IMG/VR virus record: IMGVR_UViG_3300037067_013150 | Location: 11,169 to 75,168 of that record | Reading direction: 5' to 3' (one strand) | Length of the DNA stretch: 64,000 nucleotides | DNA from: a virus | Lineage: Duplodnaviria; Caudoviricetes | Shown here: positions 1,180 to 40,396 of the stretch, one piece after another | How positions within the stretch are numbered: position 1 is the stretch's first letter | Layout: each line of letters begins with the position of its first letter | Position numbers and translations under genes: made by a program | Notes under the pieces: generated by a model | Seen by the model: only the letters and a program-made list of their open reading frames with translations | What the model was told of the DNA's origin: nothing | The model's database searches: none

Positions 1180-2813
1180 GATTCAAACTCATAGTTCTCA
1201 ACAAGTATTTCATTTCCATACCAATTAAGAGAAAATTCTTCTTTAAATTGTTTCATTTCTTCTTCATCTTTTACTCTAACTTCTGCAGTTACTGTAACTT
1301 TAATAACAATAGACATTTAATCTTCCTCCTTATCTTCATCTTTCTCGATAATAATACGCTTTTCTTCACGAACAGTATAACCTCTTTTTTCTAGTTTATT
1401 AAGAATAAATTCATATTTTGCTATATCGCTAGCAGAATAACAATCAAATATAAAAATTGAGTTATATAAAGATTCGGCATTTTTTATTAGTATTTCATCT
1501 GATCTATTAGTCATATAGTTCCTCAATTGTTTTCATAAGATCATCCATAGTTTGTTCTTTTTCCATATCAAATAGCATTGCTAAAAGAGAGGATGCTTTA
1601 AATGCATCTAGTATTTTAGTTGTAATAGCACTACTCATAATAGTTAGTGACCAAGCATAAGTAATCTTTTTATCCATTTTTTTCCTCCATTTTAAGATAA
1701 AGTTTAATAATTTCAGGCGTAAATTTATATTCTTTACCATCAGATGCTGAACAGATAATAGGCATTTTTCTTTTTCGGGGATCGATTCTGGCTATTGTAA
1801 AGGTTTTATTACCTTTCTTAAATGATTTACCATAATCTTCATTATTCAATCCAAATAGAATAGCATATTGATTAAAATGTTCTCTAAAATTTTCTTTAAT
1901 CTTATTCTCTATAACAGCTTCAAGTTTAGTACTAAAGTTATAAGTATTATAACTAATATTATTAATAGAAAATTTAATACCAGTTTCTTTCCTCAACTCT
2001 TCCAACTTTTTATTTAAAATTTCCCTTATAGTCAAAAGATTTGTTTTATCAAATTTAGTAAACATAGTTTTATTTCTCCTTATTTTTAATATAAACATCT
2101 ATAAGATCTTTAAGTGGTTCTTCCATATACGTCTTAACTACTCTAGGAACTATATTAGCATATTTTTCAGGTACATAAATAGTAACTCCTTTATAATGAT
2201 TTATTTTATTATTAATTATATCTATGTAACCCATATTTTCATCATCATATTCACCCTTATAGTGAATAGTTCCATTAAGATTATATCCATATCTTTTAAA
2301 GAAAGGGACAATTTCATTAATTAAATCTATTACATCTGTTCTTGTTTCAAATCCAAAATCTAATGTAGTATATTCCATAGTGAAGATATCTTGATCTATC
2401 TTATCAAATAATTTTTTAAATTGTTCAGTTGGTTGGGGGGATATTAATAATCCATCTCCCTCTAATATACAATATCCCATATTATTTCTCCTCATCTATA
2501 TTAAATAAATTTAATTTAATACCATTAATAAATTTCTCTTTTTCATACCAAGTAATAGCTGTAAACATTCTTTCATCAATCTTTGATTTTCTAGTTTGCA
2601 TATTAATTAATATAGTCATTTTATCAAATGTGAATATATATTCAGTCACAAATCCTCCTTAATCTTTTATTGCTGAAATAATAAATCCAGCGGCAATATA
2701 AATATTTGCAATAATCATATATGAATCTTTTTGCTCAAAACAAATATAACATATTAGCCACGTAATAAACATTAAAAAACAACATACAAATGAATATATT
2801 TTATTAGATTTCA

Positions 2814-3455
2814 TTATATATTCTCCTTCTTTTCTCTCTTCAAAAGTTCAGTAATATTTTCAGGACCGTCTAGTTTATAACAACTTTGACAAGAAATACA
2901 ACTCCTACCACCACAATTAATTTCAATATTATTTTCCTTTACAAACTTACGAGAGTATACTGTGAATACTTTATCAAATCCAATTGGTTTAATTGGATCT
3001 AATACATCAACTCTAGGAGTTGAATAGATAGTAATAAGATTTTCTGGTTTAACATCTTTAATATGTTTAATAATATCAGCTCTTTTACTCCACAATGCAA
3101 ACATCTTTTCAGGAGCTGCTTTAGCTATATTAACATAGTTATAAGCATGAGTCAAATTCAACAGTTCTCCAAAGGCATGAAATCTTACTATATTAAACTT
3201 CTTCAATTTCTTTATTACCTTACCAATTTGTTCTTCATTTAACATACGTTTAGATAATATATCTCCATTCTTTTTATATGAAGGAATGAATTTACCTCCA
3301 TGACTATAGAAAGCTTCTAGTTGAAAGGCATAGCATTTCTTACAAATAGTATCTGTTTTAGCTGCTTTAATACAAAAAGGATTCTTCATAGTAGATGTAT
3401 TAATAGATACCATACCTTCCATTTTCTTCGTGTGTTTATCAGTTATAAATAACAT
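2814..3455 (-). CDS. GP88-like phage protein (Cys-rich)
   Basis: FC...ICKKCYA, VRFHAFGEL and C-terminal CGGRSCISCQSC; family assignment is from memory of the pattern. Confidence 0.45.
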   Translation of the reverse strand: MLFITDKHTKKMEGMVSINTSTMKNPFCIKAAKTDTICKKCYAFQLEAFYSHGGKFIPSYKKNGDILSKRMLNEEQIGKVIKKLKKFNIVRFHAFGELLNLTHAYNYVNIAKAAPEKMFALWSKRADIIKHIKDVKPENLITIYSTPRVDVLDPIKPIGFDKVFTVYSRKFVKENNIEINCGGRSCISCQSCYKLDGPENITELLKREKKENI

Positions 3456-3466
3456 ATTATTCCTCC

Positions 3467-5542
3467 TTAATTTACCGGTTTAATTATGATATAGTCCCAA
3501 TACCCTATATCATTTAATAGTTTAGATAATCTTTCTCTTAAATCTTTACGAAGAGCTTTATAATCTATCTCTTCTTTCTTCATTAATTCAATTACTTTTT
3601 CTATAGTAGTATCAAGACAGGGTTCATCTTTATACTTCTCTAATAGATCTTTAACAGCTTTTGTTTGTTCTGGTGTACCAAATATTATTTCTTTCATTGT
3701 ATCTGTAAATCCTATTAATCCTTTTGTATAATTATGTGCTATTTCATTTACTAAATTCCATATAATAAGATAGGATAATATTAACTGATTTTCTTTAATT
3801 GTAAAATCTGTAGGCATATGTACATATGCACCATTGAAATAGAATGGATTATTTAATCCCATACCATTAATACCAACTGCTGTACTCCACAATCCATATA
3901 TCAGTTCACTAGGAAAATTACTAAATGATATATCTTTTTTAACATTATCCTTGTTAACTTTTGAACCTCCAGATGTGGGTGAAATATGAAAAATGGGTGG
4001 TTGTGATACATTAAATGTTTCTCTATGTGCTATTGTTAAATCACCTAAATTTCCATCTCTTTCATCATATTTCCATCCATCTTTTAAATGAAATCCTTCT
4101 TTCAATTTTATTTCTTTATCATTATAATTAAATTTTAAATTAATATGTTTTGTATTACCACAAAATTTCCATATTGTTAATACAATAGGTTTTTCTTTAT
4201 TAACAGAATTAAATTCATCACCTTTGATTATTTCACCCTCTAAAAATGTAAAATTATCAAGAAGTTCTTTTAATACTTTATTATATCTTTTACGTCCACA
4301 CATAATATCAAATGGACTAAAAAAGGCTAAATAGCCTTTTCCTAATTTTTTAATTAATTCTATCTGCTGACCTATTGCAGGAAGAACCAAATCACCTTTA
4401 CCATACTTAAGTAATTCATCACGATATTTAATTTCTATTTTTCGTGATTCGCCTTTTTTAAGATCCCCATCTGAAAATCTTGTTGTTGCAGAAGTACCAA
4501 AAGGAGGATTAGAATAAACCAATAAATTATCAGAAGGTTCGATTTCCCATCTCTTAATCAATTCTTCTGCACTATAATCCATAACATCAATAGTATCAAA
4601 TTTTATATCCTGTCCTTCAAAAGATAATTTAGCTACTTCAATATCTTCTTTAGATATATCATTAGCTATCATTTTAGTTCCTATAAAAGGAAGAAGTAAA
4701 GAACCTGTACCTGCATAAGGTTCTACTATTAGAGAAGGTTCTACATATTTTCTTATAATATCTGCTACTTTATCTGATAGTTTAGGTTGGGTATAGAATT
4801 TACCCAGTTTTCTTCTGTCACCTATTTTTTGATATTCATCCAGATGAGCAGATAAATTAGTTAAGTCATGAGGAGTTATTCTTAATGCCTTAACAAAGGA
4901 TTCATCAACTGGTTTAATAGGTTTAGATTTTACTATGCTTCCATCAATATTATCCTGAATACCCCCCTTTTTAAGAACACTTATATCTCCTTTATTATTA
5001 TATACATCAGATATTTTAGATATCAATTCTCTTATTTCAATATCATATTTTTCTAGTCGAGACATAATATAAAATATATTAGTAGGAGATATAAATATAT
5101 ATGGAACTTCAAAATCTAAAGGAGTATCATAATGATTTATATGAATAGGCTGTCCTAATATTTGTAGAGCTTCTGCATTAAAACTTTTTGGAACCATAGA
5201 AGGAGCTAACTTTCCTGTTGAATCTATTTTCTGATAGAAAGCTTTTAATATCATCCAATTAGGTACTTTATAAAAACTTATCTCATTTGGAGTAGCCAAT
5301 CCAAACATTTGAGGAATGAAGTTAAGTTCACTTCCATTACCATATTCTCTTACTGCTCCATATAACAATTGAGCAGCAGCAAATTCATCTTTAACTTTAA
5401 CTTCTATATAAATATTATAGAAATCATCTAGTACATCACAAAAGAAACTAGATGAACCTATTCTAAATGTATACTTATCATTAGATATTTTTCTAGCTAT
5501 CTTTCTTTGTAAGTCTCTTTCATCATCATAATTTATTTTCAT
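3467..5542 (-). CDS. Type IIG-like fused restriction endonuclease / N6-adenine methyltransferase
   Basis: GKFYT, VEPYAGTGSLL (motif I) and YSNPPFG (motif IV), gamma order. N-terminus has E...CDV...IEVK...AQL, resembling a PD-(D/E)XK nuclease. Confidence 0.72.
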   Translation of the reverse strand: MKINYDDERDLQRKIARKISNDKYTFRIGSSSFFCDVLDDFYNIYIEVKVKDEFAAAQLLYGAVREYGNGSELNFIPQMFGLATPNEISFYKVPNWMILKAFYQKIDSTGKLAPSMVPKSFNAEALQILGQPIHINHYDTPLDFEVPYIFISPTNIFYIMSRLEKYDIEIRELISKISDVYNNKGDISVLKKGGIQDNIDGSIVKSKPIKPVDESFVKALRITPHDLTNLSAHLDEYQKIGDRRKLGKFYTQPKLSDKVADIIRKYVEPSLIVEPYAGTGSLLLPFIGTKMIANDISKEDIEVAKLSFEGQDIKFDTIDVMDYSAEELIKRWEIEPSDNLLVYSNPPFGTSATTRFSDGDLKKGESRKIEIKYRDELLKYGKGDLVLPAIGQQIELIKKLGKGYLAFFSPFDIMCGRKRYNKVLKELLDNFTFLEGEIIKGDEFNSVNKEKPIVLTIWKFCGNTKHINLKFNYNDKEIKLKEGFHLKDGWKYDERDGNLGDLTIAHRETFNVSQPPIFHISPTSGGSKVNKDNVKKDISFSNFPSELIYGLWSTAVGINGMGLNNPFYFNGAYVHMPTDFTIKENQLILSYLIIWNLVNEIAHNYTKGLIGFTDTMKEIIFGTPEQTKAVKDLLEKYKDEPCLDTTIEKVIELMKKEEIDYKALRKDLRERLSKLLNDIGYWDYIIIKPVN

Positions 5543-6023: not shown

Positions 6024-6051
6024 AAAAAGATCCTGCATATAAATGCAGGAT
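6024..6051 (-). terminator. Intrinsic terminator
   Basis: ATCCTGCAT/ATGCAGGAT stem followed by a U-tract on the minus strand. Confidence 0.8.
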
Positions 6052-6620
6052 TAATTTCAGTCTTAATTATCGCCATCCGAAATGATTACCTTCAGAATCT
6101 ACTCCAAACATACAACCAGGTCCATTCCCTTCTGAATCTTGTGATGGATATATAATAGTACCATCTACAAGTTCTATTACTATGGGTCGAGTCCCTGTCC
6201 AATACTCTTTCCTCATCTCTTTAGCAGTCATAGGACGAATAGCTTTAATTTCTTTACAGCTCATTTTTATCATTAGTCTTTTACCTCCTTATCATTACTA
6301 AAAAACATAAAGAATTTATTACCATCTGTATGAGTATCAACCATAATCATTGTATATTTATCACCACGATAGATATGTTTCTTATAAAACCTTTGAGTAT
6401 AAATTTGAAATGAATAACAGTGACCATCTTCTTCATTAATAGTTATATCTTCTATTTCGTCACCACATACTACTTCCTTATTATTCTTAATTTTCCAAAA
6501 CATATCTATATGTTGAAAATCTGGTGCTAATACAACCCAATCCTCCACAAAACCAACATGATCATATAAATCTTGTAAAGCTCTTTTATAATTATTAATT
6601 ATACTCATTATAAATATCTC

Positions 6621-7634
6621 CTATATATGACAATCTACGACAGTAATAAGTGTATCATCATCTACACTATCAAGAAGATCTGCTTGTTGCTTAAACCATT
6701 CTTTCTCATCAACTTCGTTAGTAGATATTCCCCACCAACCCATTGTACCTCTTTCATACCATTCACCATTAATAAGTACAGCATAGAAAGATACAGCAGA
6801 GTTTTTAGCATGTTCAATATATGTTTCTTTAGTACATTGATAATCCTCAAGTCGCATCCGACTTAATATTTGATAGTCTTTTTCTGAATAATTCTTTTTA
6901 TTTGCTTCAATTTCCTTTTTAATCTTATTACACTTTTTAATGGCTGGTTGATTATGATATAATTCCCTAGCTTGATTGATATCTTTTTTAACTGCTTCAT
7001 CTTCCCTTACTTCTTTCCATGACCTTTTAATCTTCGGAATCTTACCACCAAAAGCTTTTTCAATAAGTTCATATTCCTTTTTAGCTCTATTACCAGCATC
7101 CTTTTTCATACCAGAAAAATCAATATCCTCTTTATAAGCTTGATCTACCCAACCCTCACGATCAGATTCACCTGAATTGGTCCAACTTTTATGACCCATA
7201 CTTCCATTCTTACCCTTTTTAAGTTTGAGCGAACCAGACCAACGACCACCTATTGAATACCAATCCCATTTAGAATTGGGATTACACATATATCCATACC
7301 TTTTCTTTACAATATTACGTTTCTCAAATCCACAATAATCTTTCATATACTCTTCAAAGGTAGGATATAGTTCATTATATTTAACTTTAATCTTTTTAGA
7401 TCCTTTAGGATATAAGATATCAGTTGAATCTTTCTTAAAACGATCATCCCACGGATCAAACAAACTTCCATCTGCAAGTTTAATCTTATCTGCCTTTTCT
7501 GTTGTATACTTCTTTAGATATTCATCTTCTACATCTTCAAATTCCAAGAATTCTCCTTCTGTTGTTTGCTCATTAAATGGAGCAAGTTGTTCATCTATAT
7601 CATCGCCAATAATTAATACAGTAAAATGTGAAAT
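6621..7634 (-). CDS. Conserved phage hypothetical protein (NPNSKWDWY-IGGRW), probable ATT start
   Basis: Open frame extends 29 codons upstream of the track start to ATT-SHFTVLIIG, with GGGAGG 8 nt upstream; in-frame TAA at 7652-7650 and no in-frame ATG. Confidence 0.75.
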   Translation of the reverse strand: MSHFTVLIIGDDIDEQLAPFNEQTTEGEFLEFEDVEDEYLKKYTTEKADKIKLADGSLFDPWDDRFKKDSTDILYPKGSKKIKVKYNELYPTFEEYMKDYCGFEKRNIVKKRYGYMCNPNSKWDWYSIGGRWSGSLKLKKGKNGSMGHKSWTNSGESDREGWVDQAYKEDIDFSGMKKDAGNRAKKEYELIEKAFGGKIPKIKRSWKEVREDEAVKKDINQARELYHNQPAIKKCNKIKKEIEANKKNYSEKDYQILSRMRLEDYQCTKETYIEHAKNSAVSFYAVLINGEWYERGTMGWWGISTNEVDEKEWFKQQADLLDSVDDDTLITVVDCHI

Positions 7635-7670
7635 TTTGGGTTCCTCCCATTAATAATTATAAATTTTTAC

Positions 7671-7699
7671 TTGACATTTTTTATACATTTTGTTATACT
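7671..7699 (+). promoter_or_regulatory. Sigma70-type promoter for the HNH gene
   Basis: TTGACA-17 bp-TATACT with extended -10 TG; AGGAG SD downstream. Confidence 0.8.
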
Positions 7700-7719
7700 T
7701 GTATTAGGAGAATAATCTT

Positions 7720-8340
7720 ATGTACACCAGAAAATGCCCAAACTGTAATAAAATAATTAATTATACATTTAAAAGATCATTAGATAGAGCTAATAAAAGA
7801 AATGCTATTTGTAGACATTGTTTTGAAAATAAACCACAATTATTAACTCGTTTATGTCCTCAATGTAATAAAGAAATTAAACATAAACACCATTGGGTTA
7901 GAAATAAACTTGATAAAGAACAAAGACTTTGTAAAGAATGTTCTAATAAAAATAAAACTTTATCTTTACAAAATAAATGGAGTAAAGATTTTGATTGTTG
8001 TATTCATTGTGGTACAACTATTAAAAAGCATAGAGCAGAAGGAATGTGTGACCAATGTTATAATAGATATAGTATTAAAAGAAGAATTGATATTATGTAT
8101 GCTAGAGCTAAACGAAGATCTAAAGATTTTAACAGAACTATTTGTTCTAAAAATGATTTCATAGTTCATGCATATAATAATATTAATATTATAAAAGAAC
8201 TCCATTCAAATTGGATCGATTCTGGCTTCAGTAATACTATGGTTCCTTCTGTTGATAGAATTAATAATGATTTAGGATATTTTCCAAATAATATTCAGTT
8301 CATTACTAAATCAGATAATTGTAAAAAAAGAAATCATTAA
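7720..8340 (+). mobile_element. Free-standing HNH-like (homing) endonuclease with N-terminal Zn-ribbon repeats
   Basis: PSVDRINNDLGYFPNNIQFITKSDN motif, multiple CxxC, opposite strand to all neighbours, own promoter. Confidence 0.75.
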
Positions 8341-8779
8341 TCTCCTTTATTTTATTTAACCAAAGTTTACCCAATTAGCATGAACAGGAAATAGATTAGC
8401 ATCAGATAAAGTTTTACCAATATCTGTATATTTCCTTTCATATAAAACTTCTTCATCAAATACAAAATAATACCCATCTTCTAGATCATCATATCTATCA
8501 CCAGATTCATCAGAATATCTAAATATAGTAATATAAAATACAGTATCATTAATTGAAGCTTCTATATCTTTTTGTTCATCTGCATAATACTGAATAACTT
8601 GCTCTATTTCATCCCAATATTCTTCATCTGATAAACCATTATTATTAATATGATCCCATTCTTCTTTTGTATAAACTTCTTTTACATCATCTTCATCAAA
8701 ATGAATATTAAGTTTATTAAAATATTCTAGTGTAGCAGGTAATACATAAGCATTACAAGCAGCATATCCCATTCCCATA

Positions 8780-9094
8780 TTAATCCTCCCAATTAAATTG
8801 TTTTAGTTCATCATATTGAGGACCATCACAATCGAAATTAATCCATTTACATTTAAGACTTTTAGCTATATCAAATATATTAATAAATTCATCAGTATAG
8901 CCATCTCTTTTTAAAGTTTTACGTGTATCTACATCTACACCAATATAAACTCTCCAACCAAAAGGAGTTGGATCTGCTGAAACATAAGAACTATTATCAT
9001 TAGATTCATCTAATAGTTTACTATCTTCTATAGATATGTGTACAGTAGATACTACAAGATGTTTTTCTATTTCTGGATTCTTTATATTAATCAT
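8780..9094 (-). CDS. DUF5983-like phage protein
   Basis: LVVSTVHIS...FGW...WINFDCDGP pattern. Confidence 0.45.
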   Translation of the reverse strand: MINIKNPEIEKHLVVSTVHISIEDSKLLDESNDNSSYVSADPTPFGWRVYIGVDVDTRKTLKRDGYTDEFINIFDIAKSLKCKWINFDCDGPQYDELKQFNWED

Positions 9095-9999
9095 CTATAT
9101 CCTCCTCTAAATCAGGATGATTATAATCTAATAGAACTACATTACAAGTAATACATTCAATAGTTATATTTTCTGGCTCTTCTACATCACCATAACAAAC
9201 ACATTCTATTTCATGTCCTATATGATTAAGCAATTTTTTATAATTATTTTTATTTAAATCCAATGCCATTTTATTTACTCCTTTTTTATAAAATATTTAT
9301 AATTTTTTACATTTAATATTATTTATCTTCTTCATAATTCATATGTTCTATATGATAAACTCCTACAAAAGCTACTGCTTTATTTATATATTTGAATTTT
9401 TCATCAAAGTTATTATTAAAATATGCTAATGCCCATACTTCGGGTTCGATACCCTCTTCATCGGGTGTATCTATAGTAACAATCTCCCATGTTTTATCTT
9501 GAAAACCAACATATAATTCTACACAATACATTATATTCCTCCTATTTTATTTTGGATAGATTAGCTATAGTAGTAAGAAATTCTATAGATATTTTATTTA
9601 TTTTAGTTTGAGTTAAGTCAGAACTTGTTTTTAATCCTTTAATCATTCCTGTCGATATAGCATGAATTCTAGATAATCTATTAATATATTCTTTACCAAA
9701 TATTTCTTTAAACATTCTATTCCTCCTTATATCGTAATAAAATTTAAAATAAATGATTTCATTGAAAGAAGTATTCCTCTTTTAGCAACATCAAAATAAA
9801 AATATTGTTCTGATTTCATATTAGGAAGATTATATTTAACATGCCAAACACCTCTATTTTTAAAATTTAGTTCTGTAGATTTTACATACTTCAATGTACC
9901 TATACAAATATCTCCACATAAACATTTATATGAATTTGTTTCAATCTTTTTTAAAACAATTGTTTTTAATTTCATATATTCTCCTTAATATTATTTATT

Positions 10000-11785: not shown

Positions 11786-11798
11786 AATTTTATCCTTG

Positions 11799-12395: not shown

Positions 12396-13494
12396 TATTT
12401 ATCTCCTATAATTGTTTACTATATTCTTTAAGAAATTCACCATCAGATAAATTATAACAATATTTACATACATTAAATTTACCATGAAGTTCTTGATCTA
12501 TATTTCTAAAATCCTTAACAATAGCTTCTTTACGTCTACAACATTCACATATCATTTTATTTAATCCTCCCTAATTCAAATGCTAAAATGGATGCTTGTA
12601 TAAACTGCCATTCATTTTTAGTATATTCTTCATCACTCCATTTAAGATATTCCATAATATCTTTAATATTAATATTATTATTTATTAAATAAATAATTAA
12701 ATCGGGTTCGATTCTCCTTTCTGGTCCATTTATACCCAATCCTTCAAAGAATTCTATTGGACAAAAATTATATAATGATTCTAATAAATCATTATTATCT
12801 TTTTTATAAAATATATTTAAAAATACTATTAATTTATGTACATTAGGAAAAGTACAAGTATGACTATCTTTACTATCATATCTTCCATAATAATCATCAG
12901 AATAATAATAAGTAATATAATCAGTACAAAATTTACAACACCCTTTACCCTCTCCTAATTTATTAGATTTATATGGACAATCTGTTCCATCAATATAATC
13001 AAGTTCATTATAATAATTATAACTATCTCCATAATCAGTTTTTTTATAAATGTACATCTGCTTTATTCTCCTTCTTCAATAATACAGTTAATCTCTTAGC
13101 AGAAGATGTATTATACATTTCTTCACTAATATTATGATTAAATTTATATATACAAGGAAGACATAAACGTGCATACTTCTTGTCTGGTGTTGTTCCATTC
13201 CAAATATATGGGATATAAATAATAATTAAAGCCCATACATTTATAGGAATTAATTCCTGACAACAAGAACATTTAGTATTTTCATATTTTATTGGGGCAG
13301 TAAAATGCCAACCTCTTCCAGAGGATTCCTCTTTATCTAATAGATTACCAAAGTATTTAAGACAATGCATACATATATGATCATAAGCATTAGTCATATA
13401 TGGTTCATCTTTAATAATTGGTTTCTTACAATTACTACATTTTTTCATTCGTCTATTGATTTCTTCATGCATATAATTATCCCTTAATTAAGAT

Positions 13495-16677: not shown

Positions 16678-18294
16678 CTAACTTTTTATTTCAATAATTC
16701 CTTTATTCCATTTAGGTACATATCTTTTATCATAATATCCTGCTAAAATAAACATGGTATTTATACAGGGTTTGTTTGGATATATTGACATTGCATCTGT
16801 AAAAGTAAACAACAAATTATTTGTTTTATTATATCTCTTTTCTTTTATATAATCATATAAGACTTCGTGTGAAGTTCCTCCACCACCATGTATTTTAATA
16901 TTCATAATTTTTGATACATTACCATTTTTAATTAGGTAATCATCATGTACTTTTGCATCGTGTGTAATAACACGCATTTCAGCACCGGGAAAAGACCTAG
17001 CTAAAGATATAATCCCTGTCATAAAGATAGATAAAGTATGAGGATCAACAGATCCAGAAGTATCTATAGCTATTAATACAACTGGATGTTCACCAACAAC
17101 AGATGGTAAATATAGTTTCTGACTTATATATTTACGATTAGGTTTAGACCATACAAAATCCTGTGGCATACTTCTTTGTATTTGTCTTGAAAGAATAGCA
17201 TACCAATTAATATAATTCTTATTATATATCTCAAATTCTCTTCCCAATCCAGCAGGAATCTTTCCTCTTTGCTTGGCATAATTATATGCAGTTGAATTGA
17301 TCCTATCCCAATCCTTCTCTGTAGTAGATGGTTGTGGGTTCGATTTCCCCTTTTCACTTCCTTTGCTATCCTGTAGTTCTTTATCTACATCTGATTCCTT
17401 TTTATCAAATTCATGAGTATCTAATCCTTCGGATTCTTCTTTAGGAACATATACCTCCAGATTACCAGTTTGTTTACCTTTACTCTTTGAACCCCCATCT
17501 TCACTTTCTTCTCCTTCTCCTTCTCCTTCCCCTTCTTTGTCTGACTTCTCTCCATCACCAGAAGATTTATTACCTTTCTTTTTCTTTTGTTGTTCCTTTT
17601 GCTTATCAAATAATCCTTTCTTTAAATCTTCATAGATCTCTTCTGAACTCTTTTTACTAATATCAGTTATAGTAACACCAGCAAATTCATATGTATCATT
17701 CTTTGGTACACATATCTTCTCTGGTGGGATTAAACCACTATTAACTAATATGTTATTATCAACAAGATCAATAGCTATATTCCATAAAGAAAAATATATC
17801 TTTGAGTAAAAAGATAGTTCCTTTCCTATTGGTATAACATTATTATGAGTTAAAGATACTATACCAGTTTTATAATCAATAATATAATCTACATCTTCTT
17901 TATAAATTGTATTAGTTAAATCATCTGCAACTACCATATGATTCTTACTAGGAATAAATTTTAATGTAATAAAGCTATTAGTTTTATTAGGAAATATATA
18001 TTTATCTGGTTCAGTTATAGCAGATAAAGTAATTGTTCTACCTTTACCTCTCTCATGATGTTTTAAAGCTAGATGTTCTCCTTCATGAGCTAAAGCAAAT
18101 ACTAACTCATCATCATTTAAAGATAATATAAATGATGGATTATAATATAGATTTCCATATCTATCTATAGCCAATGTTCTTTCCGTAGCCCTTTCTATTA
18201 TAGTTAAGTGTTCAACTATATAGGAGAAGTATGGCATACGGGAATACATTCTTATTTTGGCTCTACTTATTTTCTCTCTAGGTGTTAGTGCCAT
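16678..18294 (-). CDS. DUF2201-like metallopeptidase plus vWA-domain protein
   Basis: HEGEH (HExxH), WNIAID, acidic linker, IAIDTSGS MIDAS motif and GGGGTS; adjacent to a MoxR-like ATPase. Confidence 0.85.
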   Translation of the reverse strand: MALTPREKISRAKIRMYSRMPYFSYIVEHLTIIERATERTLAIDRYGNLYYNPSFILSLNDDELVFALAHEGEHLALKHHERGKGRTITLSAITEPDKYIFPNKTNSFITLKFIPSKNHMVVADDLTNTIYKEDVDYIIDYKTGIVSLTHNNVIPIGKELSFYSKIYFSLWNIAIDLVDNNILVNSGLIPPEKICVPKNDTYEFAGVTITDISKKSSEEIYEDLKKGLFDKQKEQQKKKKGNKSSGDGEKSDKEGEGEGEGEESEDGGSKSKGKQTGNLEVYVPKEESEGLDTHEFDKKESDVDKELQDSKGSEKGKSNPQPSTTEKDWDRINSTAYNYAKQRGKIPAGLGREFEIYNKNYINWYAILSRQIQRSMPQDFVWSKPNRKYISQKLYLPSVVGEHPVVLIAIDTSGSVDPHTLSIFMTGIISLARSFPGAEMRVITHDAKVHDDYLIKNGNVSKIMNIKIHGGGGTSHEVLYDYIKEKRYNKTNNLLFTFTDAMSIYPNKPCINTMFILAGYYDKRYVPKWNKGIIEIKS

Positions 18295-20275: not shown

Positions 20276-21268
20276 CTATTTCTTTTTGGGTTTTTTCTTC
20301 TCATCTTTCTTTTTTTCCTCTTTAAAAAGATAATCAATAGCTTTTTCAGCTAGAGAAGATGCTGATAGAAGAATTTCTGGTTCAGCATCAAGAGTTTGCA
20401 TCCATTTATCTACATGAAATGCAGATGATTTAGGTACGTCCATACCAAAGATATGACAAAGACCAGCAGAACCAATCTCTACTACCAATTGCTCTTTAGA
20501 ATAATCCTCATCTTTTGTATCATTATCTTTATATCGTTTTAATATAGTAGGCATACCAGTTGCTGATATAATTTCTTTAAAAAGATCAATATAATAATTA
20601 TTCTCTGATACAAATCTAGTAATCAAAGGTATTGTAATTGTATTATCTAATACATTATAATAGGTTCGATTCCCTCCTTCAACCTTTTTGATACCAAATT
20701 TATTAAGAACTCGTTCAATGAATTGATCTGCAGATTCATTTCTCTTATTCTTTGATAGTTTATCTACAGACAATTCTTTTACAGGCAATCCTTCTACATC
20801 AGTAATAGGATATACAGTAAAGGCACGATAAGTCCATCCCCAAAAACCTGTCCTCTTTTTATACTCCTCATCTGTTTCCCCTTTCCTTTTTGGTTTAGGA
20901 AACCAAGCCACAACTACATAAGGAGTAGCATTAGGTTTAAGAGTTGCATTATAATCCTTCTCTGCATTACTTTTAGTAATAAACAAATCACAAGGTACAT
21001 AAGAAAGCAAAGGAACATTCCATCCACGATACGGTTTCAGTGTAGTATAATTCATCTTACGTTGCTCAATCCATTCTTTTTCTTGAAATGGAAGAACGAT
21101 ATCTTCATTAGATTCTTGTATACGTTTGGTAAGGATCTGTGCATTCATCCTCTTAATAACTTGCTCCAATGCTATTTGTACTTGTTGTCTACTCGTTGGC
21201 CCTTTATGAAGGGTTTCTCCTTCAGGAAGAGTAGTTCCTTTAGTTTCTTTTTCAATAGTTTCTACCAT
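20276..21268 (-). CDS. ardC: ArdC-like ssDNA-binding antirestriction protein with degenerate zincin site
   Basis: NYTTLKPYRGWNVPLL, FTVY...DVEGL, YYNVLDNTITIP...F, LFKEIISATG and YSKEQLVVEIGS are collinear with ArdC. Confidence 0.75.
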   Translation of the reverse strand: MVETIEKETKGTTLPEGETLHKGPTSRQQVQIALEQVIKRMNAQILTKRIQESNEDIVLPFQEKEWIEQRKMNYTTLKPYRGWNVPLLSYVPCDLFITKSNAEKDYNATLKPNATPYVVVAWFPKPKRKGETDEEYKKRTGFWGWTYRAFTVYPITDVEGLPVKELSVDKLSKNKRNESADQFIERVLNKFGIKKVEGGNRTYYNVLDNTITIPLITRFVSENNYYIDLFKEIISATGMPTILKRYKDNDTKDEDYSKEQLVVEIGSAGLCHIFGMDVPKSSAFHVDKWMQTLDAEPEILLSASSLAEKAIDYLFKEEKKKDEKKKPKKK

Positions 21269-24840: not shown

Positions 24841-25304
24841 AAAAATCTCCTTTTTAAATTAATTTAAAATATAATATCATTTGATAAATATACTTCAATA
24901 TCCTTTTTATCACATTTGGAACATTGAGAATTTGGTATACAATCATAAACTTCAGCCCATTTATGATTACAATTAGGACATTTATACATATTAAGATATC
25001 CAATAAAAGAGGTTCGATTCCCCTCCATTATACACAACCCCCACAACAAACATAATACTCTGATAGCTTATCAGATACAGCTTTTTGTACCTCTTCACTA
25101 TATTCTTTAGCATCCTCCTCATTCCAAATAAGTTCTCCTGATTCAACATGATCATTCCAATCATCATCAAACCATACAGAACCAGTAGAATGACAACAAT
25201 ACTTCTCTTGATATATTTCAATCCCATCCTTAATAATGGTTAAATTACCCATACAAGTACAAGGATATTCACCATCATATTCTACTTGTATCATATATTA
25301 TCTC

Positions 25305-26959: not shown

Positions 26960-27247
26960 GTTAATCTCCTTTAATTATCATTAAATTTATCTCCATATTC
27001 TAATAAAACTGTTAATATTTCAGCATTATTAAAATCTTTTAAAGCTTCTTTAATAAAATATTTTTTTTGAGAACCAAAAGCAGTCCCATCATAAGCAGGC
27101 TGACATTGTTTTCGTATATAACACTCACTACAATATATATGTCCAAAAGCATAAAAAGGATTACATCTTTCAAAAGTTTTTATACTTAATAAGGCAACTA
27201 ATTGTTTCTTTCTTAAATCATCCATAATAATCTCCAATTAAGTATTT

Positions 27248-27282
27248 AAGGATCGACTCTCCATTCAAGAGAGTCTTACCTT
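27248..27282 (-). other. Structured intergenic element, copy 1
   Basis: AAGG-TAA-GACTCTC-loop-GAGAGTC-GAT-CCTT. Confidence 0.7.
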
Positions 27283-27531
27283 AATTATTTAATCTTCTTC
27301 TTTATATGCTTCTTCATTAAGTTCATTATCAATATCTTTTTCTTTTCTATTATCAGGTATTCCCATCATTGTAGAAAAGGCAGCACATAAAGCTACAACA
27401 ATAATAACTATACCTTGACTACTAAAAGCAGATATAGCTATTAATGAAACCCAAGGTATCGCATAAATAATAATTTGTTTTATAGTTATATCTTCACTAT
27501 CAATTTTCATATTCTATTCTCCTAAATCTAA

Positions 27532-29075: not shown

Positions 29076-29638
29076 TTAAACATCCTTATTTATTAATAGT
29101 TTTATTACATCTTATTGTTATATCATTTCCCATTACTTTACATCCACCTTTCTTAACTTTACATACTTCATTAACTTCATATATTTTATATATAAGAAGT
29201 GATATAATTAATAATGAAAATAATATTAATACATAAAATATTTTTTGTTTAATATCTTTCATATATTTAACTTATAAAATTTTTATAAACATATAATAGA
29301 AACAATACAATAAAATGAAATGCCCAAAAAACTGTACACTTAATCTTTTCCGTCATTTAATTCACCTCTTACGTCTTCATCATATACAAATCTATTTGAT
29401 TTATGAACACCAGAATAATTTGTAATAAATTTAGTTAATATAGGTATCAATTCATGTAAATCATCAACAGATAATTGTACATAACCATATTTAGTATCTT
29501 CTTGTAATGCAGTTAATTGTACACATATTCCTTTATTACCACCAGAATATCTTGTTACAGATAAATCTACATTACGACTACCACTTTCTTTTAATACACC
29601 TATTTCTGTACTCATATATCCTCCTTAATTAAATGTTT

Positions 29639-29679
29639 AAGGATCGACTCCCCATAAATAGATCAGGAAGTCTTACCTT
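29639..29679 (-). other. Structured intergenic element, copy 2
   Basis: AAGG-TAA-GACTTCCT-loop-GGGGAGTC-GAT-CCTT; stem covaries with copy 1. Confidence 0.7.
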
Positions 29680-29862
29680 AATTATTTAATTATTAATATT
29701 TATAATAATAATTGCTAGTACAATTAAATGAATTAATGCACAAATCCATCCACTAAAAGCAGTAAAATTATGATTTGTTATTGCAATTACTATATTTAAA
29801 ATATATACAATAAAAGCAATTATAAATAATATATTTGTTATAATCATTTTTATACTTCTATA

Positions 29863-30651: not shown

Positions 30652-31305
30652 ATTATACTCCTTAATTTATATGAGCTATTTGTATAGCTAAATAAAACTT
30701 TTAACTCTTAAACATTTCCACTACTATTAATATAAATCATATTATTTTACCCTTTCTATAAGGGTAATTTCATTACAAAAAATAGTTCCATCAGGCCAAG
30801 GAGATTCTCCTATCATATAAGAATCTATAATAGTTTTAAAATTTTTTCGATTACTTACACCATTACAAGTATAAGCAAATAGATTTTCAAAAGATCTAGG
30901 ATGTATTTTTTTATAATATCTCTTATTTACTATTGCTTTACATTTCCATATTTGAAATTTTCCTCTAGCATTATAATAATCATCCAAAAATTCTTCTGCA
31001 TTCCTTTTTGTGCCAAAAGCTAGTAAATCATAATTACCTACAAATTCCCTATTAGGATATACTGAAACTCCAGGTATATACTCAATTATAATACCTTTCT
31101 TCTTAAGAAAATTCCTTACAAGTAAATCAAATCCTTTACGAGCTATAGCCCAATTATAATCTAAACCATATGTAAATGAATATAACTTATTCTTTTTAAC
31201 AGATACTACTTTATAAACAATTTTTTCATTATTATTATTTTCTTCCATTTGTATCTCCTTTATTTTAATATAAAAAGGATCGAATCCCTCTATACAGCAA
31301 TGCTT

Positions 31306-33192: not shown

Positions 33193-33205
33193 AACTTACT
33201 ACTAA

Positions 33206-33676
33206 CTAAACAAGCCCAGTAGATGTATATACTTTTATATATACCTTATCATCAGGCTTCTTAAGACTAACTCCAATAATAGGAGCCATAGCATCAAAGT
33301 CAGTCATAGCCTTAATAACCTCAAGATTCAATTGCTCAACAGTTTTGATACAATCAAACTTCTTAAGATTCTTAAGCTGTGCTATAGTAAATACTTCATC
33401 AGGTACAATAAGGCTCGATTTCCCCTTGGCCTCCACAGAGATCTCACCATTGGTAAACTTAACCTTATGTTCAAAATCTGTATCTTTATTAGCAAGACAC
33501 AATGTTTTCAACGCATTCTCTGTAACTTCAAGTTCTGTCTTAAGAGGATCAATAGCTTTATTAAGCCTTGTTTTAATAGCAATGATCTCCTTGTTAGCTT
33601 CCTCTTCCTTCTCTGCAATCTTGTTGTTAAGCTTTGCTATCTTCAATAGATAGTTGTTGTACATAGTTGAATCCAT
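33206..33676 (-). CDS. gam: Mu Gam-like host-nuclease inhibitor (DNA end-binding)
   Basis: N-terminal coiled coil, then KVKFTNGEISV...LKNLKKFDCIKTVEQLNLEVIK...IGVSLKK. Confidence 0.75.
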   Translation of the reverse strand: MDSTMYNNYLLKIAKLNNKIAEKEEEANKEIIAIKTRLNKAIDPLKTELEVTENALKTLCLANKDTDFEHKVKFTNGEISVEAKGKSSLIVPDEVFTIAQLKNLKKFDCIKTVEQLNLEVIKAMTDFDAMAPIIGVSLKKPDDKVYIKVYTSTGLV

Positions 33677-33690
33677 TTATTTTCTCCTTG

Positions 33691-34521
33691 TTATTTTATA
33701 TTTTTATAAATAGCACTAATATATTTTATAGCTTCATTATATTCTATATAATATTTATTATTTTTATGTTTTTTAGTAACCAATTTTTTAAATTCTTTTA
33801 TTGTACAAAATTGACAACCACAAAGAACTATTATTCCTTTTGTTGTAAAATAAAAAATAGCATGAGAATTTCTTGAACCAATATGATTAATAGTAATACT
33901 TCCTCTTCCTATTAATTTATATCCATTAAGTGTTCTTTTACCTTTTATAAATTGATCACCTTTTACATGTTGAACCCCTTCTATAACTTGATTACCTTTT
34001 ATAAATTTATAACCTTCTATAGATTGATAACCTTCTATAGATTGATAACCTTCTATAGATTGATAACCTTCTATAGATTGATTACCTTCTATAGATTGAT
34101 AACCTTCTATAGATTGATAACCTTCTATAACTTGATTACCTTTTATAAATTGATCACCTTTTACATATTGACTACCTTTTATAACTTGATTACCTTTTAC
34201 ATATTGACTACCTTTTATAACTTGATTACCTTCTATATATTGATAACCTTTTATAACTTGATTACCTTTTATAACTTGATTACCTTTTATAAATTGATTA
34301 CCTTTTATAAATTGATCACCTTTTACATATTGACTACCTTTTATAACTTGATGACCTTCTATATAAATTGATTCATTAAAAATACAATCACAATTTATTA
34401 TTATTGATTTATTAAATTCATATCTATTATTTTTTATATTAAAAAATTCTTTTTTTATAAATACATTTTGTTTATCAAAATCATTTTTTGAAAATATATA
34501 TTTATCTTTTAATTCTTTCAT
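33691..34521 (-). CDS. Hexapeptide-repeat (beta-helix-like) protein
   Basis: 23 x G-x-Q-x-[IV]-[KE], followed by GSR...CGCQ...EF...H...EY C-terminal cap. Confidence 0.8.
   Translation of the reverse strand: MKELKDKYIFSKNDFDKQNVFIKKEFFNIKNNRYEFNKSIIINCDCIFNESIYIEGHQVIKGSQYVKGDQFIKGNQFIKGNQVIKGNQVIKGYQYIEGNQVIKGSQYVKGNQVIKGSQYVKGDQFIKGNQVIEGYQSIEGYQSIEGNQSIEGYQSIEGYQSIEGYQSIEGYKFIKGNQVIEGVQHVKGDQFIKGKRTLNGYKLIGRGSITINHIGSRNSHAIFYFTTKGIIVLCGCQFCTIKEFKKLVTKKHKNNKYYIEYNEAIKYISAIYKNIK
33943..34356. repeat. Coding 18-bp tandem repeat (23 units)
   Basis: Units such as TTGATAACCTTCTATAGA and TTGATTACCTTTTATAAC. Confidence 0.95.
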
Positions 34522-35503
34522 TTTAAAACCTTCTTGTATTATTCTAATTCTTTTATAATAAAAGTTATAGGTATATTACTCTTTTTATTTTCATATTAAT
34601 ATTCTCCTCTATATATAAGTTACATTACCACAATCAAAACAAACATATGATTGTGGTTTCCAATCCTTAAATGATCTATAATGTTTCTTATCCATTATAA
34701 TCATCTTACCACCACAATTATTACATTTCATATTAATACTATCCCTATTATTGCCATTATAATGATAATAAACTGTACAAAAAAACCCGTATAATTATCA
34801 TCCGCATAATATTGAAGCATTCCTACAAACCTACCAGAAATAAGTAAACATAATAGAATGATTATATATATTTTCATTATAATCTCCTATAATGTATAAT
34901 TATTACACCATTCTTCAAACTTAAGAATGGCATTAGCTATTTGTGGTATATATGTAGCATACTTATCTTCTAATTTCCTCCTTTCTTTATCACCAAAGTA
35001 TTCATATACTAATCCCTTCTTCATAACTTTAACCATTAATTGACCTTTAATCTTGTTAATCTCTAACTCACAATCATATAAACTTTCACTTACCATTTAA
35101 ACCTCCTTATTTCTTTTTATTCTTATTTGAAAAAGGTTTCTTCAAACTGCCCCCAAAATCTGTTATAGTATATGTACCATTAAATTGTTTAACTATAACT
35201 TTACCATCAAAATCATTAAAACATAAAGCTCTTCCAAATACAATACCTATAGATCTATTACATGATAATAGCTCTACCTCTTTACCTCCAGAATATAAAA
35301 GTATTGATTCATAACTCTCTTTATTATTAACAAGATAATAAAGAGGTGAAAAAGCATCTGATATAAATATAAGACAAATTAATATTATTGATAATTTTAA
35401 TATAAAATTCATTTATCCTCCTTATAATATTATTATTAATTATCAACAAGTAGCAGTAAAAAGGATCGAATCCCCTTTACTGCTCTATATTCATAATTAC
35501 TAA

Positions 35504-36202: not shown

Positions 36203-36915
36203 CTCCTTTATTAATTTAAAATCTTAATGTTGCTTACTATATATATAGTAAGCAAAGGTTAAAACTTTAAATGTAATTAAAGCTGTGTATCTGTCTTAAT
36301 ACCAACAGGCTCATAAAGATACCAATTTGTTTATTTATTTTCAGAAAGTTGTTCTATTTTAGTCTCATAATATTTAGAAAAACAATTAAATATTTCTTTA
36401 AGATCTAATTGTTTATCTAATGAATTAATAATTTTAATAAAATCCCCAACAGAAAGTTTAGAATCTATTTTAATCGTATCATCTGATATAGATTTAAGTT
36501 TTATTATCGCTTCAGAAACTTTCATATATATCTAACCTTAATATTAATTAATAATTATTTAAAGGAACCAGCTTACCATTAATAAACTTATTACGTTTTG
36601 TAATCCCTTGACCTCTTCCCCAATCAAAACGTTCATTAGTAGGATGAGCTTTTTCTATCATATCTGTATAGTTTGCTATATTTTCATCAATCATATCGCC
36701 TGCAGATACAAACGTAAATACAGATAAACAATACATAAATCCATTCTTTTCCGCTTTCTCAATCTCCTTTAATGCTTTCTTTAATTCTTTAGTCTCAATA
36801 CAAAATTCCATATCTTACTCCTTATTATTAATATTTATATTACTTATTCATATAATATACTATATAACTGATTATTCATAAAATTCTTTAATGCCTATTA
36901 TAACTAATAAGCATT

Positions 36916-36945
36916 AAAAAATAGCCTATTATTATAAATAGGCTA
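36916..36945 (-). terminator. Intrinsic terminator
   Basis: TAGCCTATT/AATAGGCTA stem plus U-tract. Confidence 0.75.
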
Positions 36946-37515
36946 ATAACTATCTCTTACATAAACCCATACATAGAAGCAATTTGCATTACCTTACTTG
37001 CTTCCTTAAACATCTCCCTCTCTTTACTTGTTAGATGTGAAGCTTTCATTATTAAAACTTTCATATTAAAACCTCCAATCTATATTAAAAGTGTCGATTC
37101 CCCGTTAAACAATTAACTTCTTCTTCAAAACCCTACTTGCATATCTCCTTAATTGCTTAACAATAAGATCAGCATACTTTTGAGCCTCTTTTTTATTAGT
37201 CGCTCTACAAAAATTAACATAGTTACTTAATTCACTACAACATGAAGCTAAAGGACACTTATATATACACCAACATCTACCATTAAAAGATTTATCTCTG
37301 TCTTCTCTTTGTTTTAAATATTCACATAAAGGACATAAACATCTCATATAATATATATAACTAATAACAGATCTATGCTTTACTTGAAGCTTACTCGTAT
37401 ATCCTTTGTCCCTTATATGTTCCCATAACCGTATAGTTAATTCAACCGCTTCTATTAAACTTAATCTCTTATAATACATTTATACCTCCTTTATTATTAA
37501 TTTTTAAATACTATT

Positions 37516-37547
37516 AAAAAATAGCTGATATTAATAATAATATCAGC
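37516..37547 (-). terminator. Intrinsic terminator
   Basis: GCTGATATTA/TAATATCAGC stem plus U-tract. Confidence 0.75.
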
Positions 37548-38862
37548 CTGATTTTAATTTTACTTTATACCTCATATTCTGACACAATTACCTTTTTCTT
37601 TTCTATTTTCTCTTCTTTTTTAATCTTACGCTTCTCTACAAAATCTTCTATTAATTTCTCCGCACTCTCTTTATCTATAAATCCTACAACTTCATAATCA
37701 GGACTGGCTACTAATTCTTTTGTTAATGTTATCCATATCCCTAATACTTTTCTCTGGGCTGAATAATAACCATCCTTTTTTATTATCCTTACTTTCATTT
37801 CTTATACCTCTTATTATAATTAATTTTTAAATCCCGACCGATTTTTAAAGATTGTTCCTCCTCAATACCCTCTGATTATAATCTTTATAATGATCATAAT
37901 CCTCATCAGCTCTACCACTATTAATATAATCATTCATTGCTTCTATCTCTGATATAGTTGGTTCTCTCTCCCTTTCCTCTGAAATATACTTCTCATATTC
38001 CTCTGCCATCTTCCTCTCTGTTTCATAATATTTATCCTGTCTCCTTATCTCTTCCCTTCCACATCTTTTAGAACATACATGATTAATCTCATACTCACCA
38101 TTAACTTCATAACCCTTATTAGATGAATAGGCTTTGTTACATATACAACATGAATATACTTCAGATATATAATACTTACATATCTTCCCTATGTAATCTT
38201 CTATATCATCAATATACTTATTATTAATAATATGATTAATCTTATTTATAATAAATAACTTATTTATTCCCTTATTAAATAACCATTTATTATAATATCT
38301 CTCATATCTATCCACTATATTATCATAATATCCTTCTGACATCTTTGCACCGCAATCCTCTATACTTGCTGTTTCACCTGGGTCCCAAAAAGTTTGACGA
38401 GATCCTTTAGATCTATAACCTATACTATGTTCACAACTCCAACATGAATGTTTACCTTTGTATATTCTCTTATTATCCTTAAAAAACTTATTTATTTTAT
38501 TAAAAAGTAACATTCTTTACCTCCTTTACTATCTTTACTTTACTATCTTTAGATCTCTTACTACCTCCTTTCATTCTTTACTATTCATAAATTCTTCTAT
38601 CTTGTCTATTAATGATACATCTTCTATTGGTTCTCCTTCTTCCAATATTAGTGTATTAGTATAAGATTGATTAACATTATATGTCCTTATTACAGAAAAA
38701 TATCGTCCATCTAATTCAACACTAAATGTTGTTTGTTCTTGTTCTACATTTACACTATTCATTCTTTACTCCTTTTATTTAATTTTTATTAATTTTAATA
38801 ATAAATTTAAATAAGTTATTAACATATGTTTATAACTTGTTAATAACTTTGTTAATAAATTA

Positions 38863-39039
38863 TTATTTGTATCTTTTCCTAAACATACCAAATTTATGAG
38901 TAGCATAATATACATTATAATGCTCATCATAATCTTCTATTACAACAGTAAACCAATCTATACTACCATACCACGGAGTCTTAAAACCAAATTGGATACA
39001 TAAGGCTCGATTCCCTTTTAATGCTATCTTAATTTCCAC
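38863..39039 (-). CDS. 58-aa hypothetical protein missed by the ORF track (GTG start)
   Basis: AGGAGG SD, then VEIKIALKGNRALCIQFGFKTPWYG...KRYK*; contains motif site 39004. Confidence 0.65.
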   Translation of the reverse strand: MEIKIALKGNRALCIQFGFKTPWYGSIDWFTVVIEDYDEHYNVYYATHKFGMFRKRYK

Positions 39040-39163
39040 CTTTAATCCTCCTATTATTATTAAATTTATTAATTTAAACCGTTATTCATCTTCCCGATCT
39101 CTCCCATGATAAAAAATTCTGGATAATTATTAATAATATAATTATTATAATTATATTATTAAT

Positions 39164-39197
39164 AAAAAGCCCTTGCCTACATGACATAAGCAAGGGC
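39164..39197 (-). terminator. Intrinsic terminator
   Basis: GCCCTTGC/GCAAGGGC stem plus U-tract. Confidence 0.85.
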
Positions 39198-39205
39198 ATT
39201 GAAAT

Positions 39206-39263
39206 ACCGGTTTCTAAACCAGTATATTAAACCGGTTTCTAAACCAGTATATTAAACCGGTTT
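39206..39263. repeat. 25-bp tandem repeat (2.3 copies)
   Basis: ACCGGTTTCTAAACCAGTATATTAA x2 plus ACCGGTTT. Confidence 0.95.
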
Positions 39264-39605
39264 CACAAACGTAAATCTTTCTTGTGTGCTGTACACATAA
39301 CCCTTTGCCTTAAGAAAATCATTATAAGGCTTTTTGAAATGTGTAGGAAGTTTCTCTGGCAGGAGTTCCTCATTGAAGAACACAGGTACTTTATTTTCAT
39401 CATCCCATTTAGCACAAACTCTTTTGAGCATATCTTCATCAGTAGGGATACGACGAACCCACTTATGATCTTCACTCATAAGAACCCATGCTTTAAGGTC
39501 CAGTTCTTCCTTTGCTCTTTCAGCTTTTTGAAGAGCTAAAGTAACAACTTCAAGCTGTTTTTTGTACCTTTTGATTTGTTCTTCTTGATACTGTTTACCA
39601 TTCAT
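39252..39605 (-). CDS. Hypothetical early protein
   Basis: SD GGAG; elevated GC; similar layout to 40397-40792 (W..xSE..KWV.R.P). Confidence 0.75.
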   Translation of the reverse strand: MNGKQYQEEQIKRYKKQLEVVTLALQKAERAKEELDLKAWVLMSEDHKWVRRIPTDEDMLKRVCAKWDDENKVPVFFNEELLPEKLPTHFKKPYNDFLKAKGYVYSTQERFTFVKPV

Positions 39606-40396
39606 AATAAACTCCTTTTTAAATTATTATTTTTATTTAACAGTTTTAAAACTGTTAAGTAGTCCCTGAAAGGTTCGATTCTCCGTTTCAGGGCTAACTT
39701 AATAGCTTAAATCAAATGTCTTGCTTTAGCTATAGAATAAGCAACAGCTAAAGGATCACCAAAGAATTTATCATCGTAATACTTTTTAGCTGTTTTCATA
39801 CCAGCAATAACTTTTTGACCATTACCAAAACGAGCTATGACTGTATCATCTTTAGTACAATAATACAAATCATATCTTTTAGTTTTTAATTCAACTTGAC
39901 CTAACAATAGACATTCTTTACATTCATTTTTATACAGTGTCATTAATTACTCCTTTAATTAATAAATTTATGTAAGCCCTGTATATATACAAGGCAAACA
40001 TAAATTTACTTTACTTTATTACAAGCTACAAAGTAATCACCGGGAGATTTAACCTTGTAATTCCTGTGGAAACAAGCACTTCTACAATAACCAGAATTTA
40101 CTTTAACAATGTCATTCATCCATTGTTCTTTTAAAGGGCAGTTAAAAACTGACCTTGAATCAATAATAATTATATTATTATCTTCAAAAATATAATTATT
40201 CTTTTTAAATTTTTGTTCATCCTTTGCACTATTTCTTGCAGCTTTAGCAAAAGGAAATGAGAAAGCCATAACTAAAAGAATAGCCATAACTATAAAAAAG
40301 GCTATATGTTCCATTAAGAACCTCCTTTTTAAATATAAATAGTCTCAATAAAGCCCCCAGGCTTCATCAGGAAGCCCAGGGGGAGAGTTCAGACTA

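Follow-up and report, generated by a model that had tools for sequence, protein, structure and literature searches.

Three groups of phages have mapped consensus sites for localized single-strand nicks, to our knowledge the only ones, and we know of no established role for the nicks of the T5, tf or phiKMV type, which have been known for about 50 years. The phiKMV-like phages carry about four nicks on the non-coding strand at a 20-nt consensus, CGACxxxxxCCTA/CTCCGG, and T5 and BF23 are nicked at R/GCGCRGG, with a few major and many minor nicks found genome-wide in T5. The DNA of T5 and BF23 has been reported to fragment at the nicks (PMC10644984). In the tf-like Pseudomonas phages, 13–14 nicks occur on one strand at TACT/RTGMC (WACTRTGAC), both inside and outside coding sequences; most of the sites are on the coding strand, they cluster in one genome region, and the motif has been kept in 61 phages that share little DNA similarity (PMC3517423, PMC11780129). 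Here, we describe a strand-specific motif in a 64,000-nt stretch of DNA (the window) from an uncultured tailed phage, comprising bases 11169–75168 of the 75,168-bp virus contig IMGVR_UViG_3300037067_013150 (G+C ~27%). We propose, with a probability of about 0.5, that this is a nick-site motif of the T5/tf/phiKMV type, cut at GG^GGAATCGA on the coding strand. Coordinates are window positions unless marked as contig positions.

A compact motif restricted to one strand of one gene arm

An earlier note on this DNA listed 17 positions of an oriented signal, and we found the motif on the minus strand at each of them (Table 1). Every match to the strict pattern RGRRADTCGANCCY was on the minus strand; there were 12 in the window, where dinucleotide shuffles predict 0.03, and 13 in the whole contig. 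When a 17-nt position matrix, built from the motif sites, was scored over the contig, it returned 20 minus-strand sites of 20.9–27.6 bits, three of which, at contig 8244, 2671 and 1792, extend the series beyond the left end of the window. Beyond these sites, scores above 8 bits were seen only at an inverted copy of 18 bits, AATGGGGAATCGAATCA, on the plus strand at contig 7580–7596 (window −3588 to −3572) inside the RNA ligase gene; a borderline match of 8.0 bits lies on the plus strand at contig 74067. The single orientation claimed earlier holds for the window and for the 20 minus-strand copies, but not for this weaker inverted copy.

The series of copies spans contig 50839 to 1792, which is the entire 49-kb arm of minus-strand genes, and ends where the genes switch strand. 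By the position matrix, the remaining 24 kb of the contig have no copy, against ~9 expected at the density of the arm, and this bears out the proposed confinement to the arm leaving the strand-switch region. The accompanying statement that 39.7–64 kb lack TCGA altogether was incorrect: 14 TCGA occur there, none of them in motif context except the one at 62549, in the T-arm of a tRNA-Pro gene (62538–62609, called by ARAGORN).

The consensus, A-N-R-G-R-R-A-A/D-T-C-G-A-N-C-C-Y, is 15–16 nt long and non-palindromic; only the TCGA inside it is palindromic, and its flanks are asymmetric. An A two bases upstream of the motif is kept in 18 of the 20 sites, and four copies belong to a subtype, CC(A/G)GAATCGA(A/T)CC. 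We found no second conserved element within 45 nt on either side of the 20 sites, and the motif is a single compact asymmetric site of ~21 bits.

Copies inside open reading frames (ORFs) occupy all three reading frames. Shuffling of synonymous codons in the 97 ORFs of the arm gave on average 0.08 copies and never more than 2, compared with the 12 observed in ORFs, and so the view that a strand-specific signal is laid over the ORFs irrespective of frame was upheld. The copies, on average ~2.6 kb apart, are also spaced more evenly than random placement would give (coefficient of variation of the gaps 0.53, P = 0.002).

One orientation, even kilobase-scale spacing and a purine-rich 5′ half are properties that a polar guide or protection sequence for a DNA translocase or nuclease, such as Chi, KOPS or an SRS-like sequence, might have. 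Binding sites of a ParB-like protein could also be imagined, as ParB_N proteins are encoded both in this phage (29863–30651) and in a relative from digester metagenomes (the digester relative, described below). However, the known Chi, KOPS and SRS sequences are 5–8 nt long and occur replichore-wide, whereas this motif has 15–16 nt and is absent from 24 kb, and the known parS, ParB and KorB sites are palindromic (13–16 bp). We consider all of these highly improbable. Among the options of the earlier note, polar DNA sites nevertheless come nearest to what we propose; it is the particular candidates, Chi, KOPS and parS, that fit poorly.

Some contigs end at a fixed base of the motif

We mapped contigs of four sequencing runs onto the region 20–40 kb and then obtained contig sequences via the proteins that they encode; all contigs were assembled from short reads, and ~38 contig ends were examined. 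The mapped contigs end at 25021 (two runs, one of them with a variant strain), 29648 and 37087, in every case in or beside a motif copy. Contig L117 of Logan SRR6484325 begins with GGAATCGAACC at 25021, the third base of copy 25010, and a contig of the variant strain, from a groundwater run, has its end there too. In a separate assembly (ENA ERZ27247358), the 33,236-bp contig L116 begins with T+GGAGTCGATCC at 29651, the third base of copy 29640. From its length and its gap-free identity over 23.8 kb, we calculated that the other end of L116 falls at contig 7585, which is the third base of the lone inverted copy.

In these independent assemblies, three sites in three data sets have 3′-side contigs that begin at the third motif base (GG^GGA-R-TCGA), one of them by arithmetic. 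Such ends in the right orientation were seen four times (at three sites), against ~0.005 expected among the ~38 ends. On the 5′ side the contigs end raggedly, one of them after GGGGAG at copy 29640 (4 nt past the putative cut); at copy 37090, two contigs run 3 and 7 nt beyond the motif, or 14 and 18 nt beyond the putative cut. The remaining breaks in those assemblies lie at repeats, palindromes or AT-rich stretches.

A reading as localized nicks, which was absent from the earlier note, gives the best fit to the one-strand signature together with the contig ends. The motif would act at the level of DNA as a strand-specific recognition site, and the strand that carries it would be physically interrupted between the second and the third purine (5′-GG^GGAATCGA-3′). 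A sequence-specific nicking enzyme, presumably encoded by the phage, would cut only the coding strand of this early, anti-defence arm, about once every 2.6 kb. The sharp 3′ side and the ragged 5′ side could then be understood, because end repair sets the end of the 3′-side fragment at the 5′ end of the nicked strand, and the 5′-side fragment would end wherever the intact strand broke. We infer that the ends come from nicks, not from double-strand cuts, and that a phage enzyme makes them.

The tf-like phages offer the closest comparison. Their nick consensus is likewise short, asymmetric and confined to one strand, recurs roughly every 3 kb, within coding sequences as well as outside them, is regional and is kept despite low DNA similarity. 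In contrast, the motif described here has 15–16 nt instead of 9 and an unrelated sequence, favours intergenic DNA and hairpin loops, and is restricted to the early-gene arm of a phage of another type, which is AT-rich and probably much larger. The evidence also differs in kind, being contig ends here and ligase-sensitive fragments or strand-specific depth there. With the phiKMV and T5 systems the motif would share sequence-specific single-strand interruptions on one strand, and it has a consensus length similar to that of phiKMV, but its ~20 sites lie on the coding strand of one arm.

The contig ends might instead reflect heterogeneity of the population at the motif, either in the length of the G run or through recombination between copies that serve as cassette boundaries in a hyperplastic early region, PeSL-like, as in T4-type phages. 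L116 has a T where the window has GG, which would fit a GG-for-GGGG variant; in the upstream half of the arm, protein similarity to the digester relative is undetectable while the motif persists in both; and the flanks of two intergenic copies share stretches of 15–22 nt (see below). However, inversion or exchange predicts contigs that are 4 common bases longer, and these were not seen, so that inversion between inverted copies was rejected. We also found no alternative neighbours for the genes beside three sites and no motif-site indels among the listed strain differences, and half of the copies lie within ORFs, away from cassette borders. Such heterogeneity thus appears very unlikely as the explanation.

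Conservation of the motif in related phages

The digester relative is represented by contigs of 108 and 209 kb, the latter being JAKLFR010000001.1 of GCA_022711095.1. Between the ArdC-like gene and the arm end, and including the convergent gene beyond, it has the same gene order as the present phage, the common proteins being ~30–67% identical. In the 39.5 kb scanned, ACGGGGA(A/G)TCGA-N-CC is present in four copies co-oriented with the genes and in one inverted copy, and all five canonical copies are intergenic. The inverted copy is otherwise in a typical upstream position. One copy is found 20 nt past a clear intrinsic terminator, where there is no room for a sigma-70 promoter, and the copy at the arm end lies between convergent genes.

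Exact positions of the copies drift between the phages, while the neighbourhoods are kept: copies are found ahead of the ParB gene, next to or within the ArdC-like gene, close to the ortholog of the 70-amino-acid gene at 9319–9531, and at the arm end. Copies within ORFs of the present phage fall in linkers or loops where the digester relative has indels. The upstream half of the arm shows no detectable protein similarity to that of the digester relative, yet motif copies are found in both. A third phage, with 85% amino acid identity, has a perfect ACGGGGAATCGACCC at the codons of the weaker copy 6183.

The motif was absent from records of 27–156 kb of relatives at 37–42% identity, and distant relatives reached via the VWA-like, GP88-like and RNA ligase proteins are without it; a viral record (G008) whose RNA ligase is 75% identical lacks synteny and is hence uninformative on motif conservation. 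Of the expected conservation in relatives, what we could confirm is the core, in the digester phage and in the phage at 85% identity; exact positions and the more distant relatives do not follow. Scanning of viral contigs for GAACGGGGARTCGANCC gave single matches only, about half of them in antisense tRNA genes, and no arrays. A megablast search against known phages had no matches, and a metagenome scan recovered the known relative alone. Samples with this lineage come from groundwater, landfill and digester, and the runs in which the present phage occurs include SRR6484325 and SRR18595300.

Placement of the copies relative to genes

Eight of the 20 copies are intergenic, compared with 17% of the arm that is non-coding. 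Several copies lie 17–36 nt ahead of start codons, immediately upstream of the Shine-Dalgarno sequence, and for 20 of the 21 copies the orientation agrees with that of the genes. About half (~10 in robust ORFs) lie deep in long ORFs, 390–1070 nt before the stop codon, even though intergenic gaps of 168–350 nt are available nearby. The final copy of the arm is 26 nt past the last long gene.

We also observed at least 25 hairpins resembling intrinsic terminators on the minus (sense) strand of window 1–42000, with 19 in one 20-kb stretch against 3.3 expected. They alternate with the motif copies at no fixed distance. At many of them the next start codon follows within ~40 nt, and because this leaves no room for a sigma-70 promoter, regulated read-through is suggested.

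This placement makes a promoter the main rival to nicks, and a serious one. The motif would then be the compact single element recognized by a phage-specific RNA polymerase or sigma factor, transcription would start in or just after the G run, and the arm genes would form a temporal class. The co-orientation with genes, the restriction to the arm, the copies ahead of Shine-Dalgarno sequences and the interleaving with terminators all agree with this, and so do the approximate location kept relative to orthologous genes and, in the digester relative, the purely intergenic canonical copies, one of them shortly after a terminator. A sigma factor gene is present at 60660–61295, in a different arm. 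T7-type promoters are similar in being one compact conserved element co-oriented with genes, with ~17–20 copies per 40–50 kb and some copies in upstream ORFs.

However, unlike T7-type promoters, the motif has no conserved start region and no partner element, many of its copies are far from gene starts, and the 75 kb, probably a fragment of the genome, revealed no phage RNA polymerase. One canonical copy of the digester relative is inverted, and the last copy of that phage points towards a convergent gene. A promoter would also leave the contig ends at a fixed motif base unexplained. Because half of the sites are deep in ORFs despite nearby gaps and the last copy is at or near the arm end in two phages, the promoter option raised earlier is weakened; it stays open, at what we regard as a low probability. 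Readings as a sigma-54, extracytoplasmic-function (ECF) or sigma-B-like promoter, or as an IHF, topoisomerase IB or phosphorothioate site, were considered and dropped, as the invariant bases mismatch or a partner element is missing.

Several observations weigh against the nick proposal itself. The intergenic enrichment (8/20 here, 5/5 in the digester relative) and the placement 17–36 nt before start codons suit a promoter, and the published nick motifs are without such placement. Nicking was deduced from about five contig ends, among which that at contig 7585 was calculated, not read, and no truncated RNA ligase product matching it is on record; the leading T of L116 may be an adapter remnant or a GG-for-GGGG variant of the G run. 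The deepest assembly runs through every site, and the low-coverage contigs of the digester relative span all its sites, their common end lying off the motif. Finally, looking for a nickase in the 75 kb turned up only ordinary HNH and GIY-YIG genes of the homing type, and a search for a nickase or polymerase among ~55 arm ORFs yielded nothing more.

Local structure around the copies

Intergenic copies often lie in hairpin loops, the outer stem of which differs in sequence from site to site; in the digester relative, the stem of the motif hairpin is GCCTTGAA/TTCAAGGC. The pairing register within the motif shifts from copy to copy, the C's never change whereas the bases that they would pair with are either G or A, and the copies in ORFs are nearly stemless. 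For these reasons there is no covariation evidence for a shared RNA fold, and none was seen across the copies. The proposed antitermination hairpin, closed by GG...CC, thus found no support from covariation.

A signal in the RNA or in the non-template strand could be a nut/put/ops-like loading site for antitermination; alternatively, a sequence-specific RNase or an antisense RNA could act on it to silence early messages. The motif was counted as strictly sense-strand in this phage, there is about one copy per terminator-bounded unit, and the short distance from many terminators to the next gene makes control of read-through plausible. The hairpin loops, some with G·U pairs that can form on the sense strand only, and two sense-strand sequences complementary to the motif in the digester relative point the same way. 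However, apart from the shifting register and the lack of covariation, the CC(A/G)GAATCGA subtype is unable to form the GG/CC closure, an Rfam search at the sites was empty, and DNA contig ends would not be accounted for. We therefore judge an RNA-level role improbable.

Two intergenic elements, 27245–27293 and 29636–29690, are twins with identical flanks, 15–22 nt of which are common; these flanks, when scanned for elsewhere, had no matches. In both, an upstream hairpin (GACTCTC/GAGAGTC in one, GACTTCC/GGGGAGTC in the other) base-pairs with the motif's 5′ half, with AAGG...CCTT closing around it.

The motif is also the reverse complement of a T-loop-like sequence, GGTTCGAATCC, and scans with it hit antisense tRNA genes. 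Unlike a tRNA T-arm, it has no 5-bp T-stem, and its copies lie in frame inside proteins. tRNA genes or relics at the sites were rejected, as ARAGORN finds the tRNA-Pro alone, at none of the sites, and Rfam finds none. In the digester relative, two more inverted look-alikes, GCGGGGAATCGAACC, read as T-arm-like hairpins on the sense strand and may be tRNA relics. At ~99465–99520 of its JGI contig (3300010429 Ga0116241_10000389; ~15450–15520 of L107), a sense-strand T-arm with a perfect 7-bp stem and a UUCGAUU loop is flanked by a 5-bp acceptor-like stem, forming a tRNA-like minihelix that ARAGORN does not call.

Gene content of the arm and other features of the contig

The arm consists of small ORFs and genes with typical early or anti-defence functions, including DNA methyltransferases, ArdC-like, ParB_N and Mu Gam proteins, a MoxR-type ATPase with a metallopeptidase/VWA-like partner, and an RNA ligase with a polynucleotide kinase-phosphatase. 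Neither structural genes nor an RNA polymerase turned up in the 75-kb contig, and because the nearest relative sits on a 209-kb contig, it is probably a fragment of a larger genome. The copies in the window are listed in Table 1.

Table 1. Motif copies in the window, with their setting
Position	Strand	Setting	Remark
1778..1791	-	in 142-amino-acid ORF	CCAGAATCGATCC subtype; 22.6 bits
4535..4548	-	in 691-amino-acid methyltransferase-like ORF	~10 amino acids ahead of NPPF motif
6183..6196	-	in conserved 68-amino-acid gene	weaker copy; perfect ACGGGGAATCGACCC at same codons in relative of 85% amino acid identity
8212..8225	-	intergenic, ATG 7 nt downstream	CCAGAATCGATCC subtype
9442..9455	-	in 70-amino-acid gene	in loop with indel in ortholog of relative
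12704..12717	-	in 166-amino-acid ORF	
17336..17349	-	in low-complexity linker of 538-amino-acid metallopeptidase/VWA-like protein	GKSNP peptide kept in 85%-identity relative
20662..20675	-	at amino acid 197 of 330-amino-acid ArdC-like protein	
25010..25023	-		contigs of two samples end at 25021, third motif base
27249..27262	-	intergenic, ATG 24 nt downstream	one of the twin elements with upstream hairpin
29640..29653	-	intergenic	twin copy; 33-kb ENA contig begins at 29651 (third motif base), opposite-side Logan contig ends at 29648
31276..31289	-	intergenic, ATG 28 nt downstream	in assembly gap of two data sets
33411..33424	-	within Mu Gam-like gene	
35462..35475	-	intergenic, at tip of 15-bp hairpin	two G·U pairs possible solely on minus strand
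37090..37103	-	intergenic, ATG 25 nt downstream	CAC replaces NCC; two assemblies end 3 and 7 nt beyond
39003..39016	-	~150 nt past intrinsic terminator	
39671..39684	-	in loop of 8-bp hairpin CCCTGAAA/TTTCAGGG	first copy of the arm

The RNA ligase (contig 7245–8417, minus strand) and the polynucleotide kinase-phosphatase (contig 8990–9901, minus strand) constitute a T4-like tRNA repair module. Both are 73–75% identical to the pair in G008, an otherwise unrelated viral record of 76 kb, and this sequence likeness suggests transfer of the module. The metallopeptidase/VWA-like protein (16678–18294) has an insertion of ~75 amino acids after the HExxH region, which is also present in the 85%-identity relative and not in five more distant homologs. 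Genes for a nicotinamide phosphoribosyltransferase-like protein and NAD synthetase at 57096–59089 adjoin a GIY-YIG homing endonuclease.

Three further places are break points of the assemblies. These are a collagen-like repeat gene at 33691–34521, with a 90-nt deletion in one strain; a 25-nt tandem duplication, TTTCTAAACCAGTATATTAAACCGG, at 39210–39260; and a 14-bp AT-rich palindrome at 41830–41861, at the head of the arm.

Significance of the motif

If the nicks are confirmed, this would be a fourth group of phages with a nick motif, unrelated in sequence to the others and belonging to an uncultured AT-rich lineage. Its layout would be informative, as the sites are found in the early anti-defence arm only, on the coding strand, at even spacing and with a preference for positions just ahead of genes. 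The results also suggest that nick motifs can be detected in public short-read assemblies through the positions of contig ends. If the motif is a promoter instead, it would be the recognition sequence of a new phage transcription system. The two are compatible, since one may speculate that a nick in the non-template strand ahead of genes could affect transcription.

A bolder and rather doubtful possibility is that the nicks are functional. With nicks in the non-template strand at intervals of about 2.6 kb, often shortly before genes, RNA polymerase might enter or start there independently of sigma factors; alternatively, the nicks might act as torsional swivels or halt translocating nucleases of the host. 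If this is true, the anti-defence arm would be both expressed and protected upon entry into the cell; the promoter-like placement of the motif and the DNA ends would both be accounted for, and a role for phage nicks would be demonstrated for the first time.

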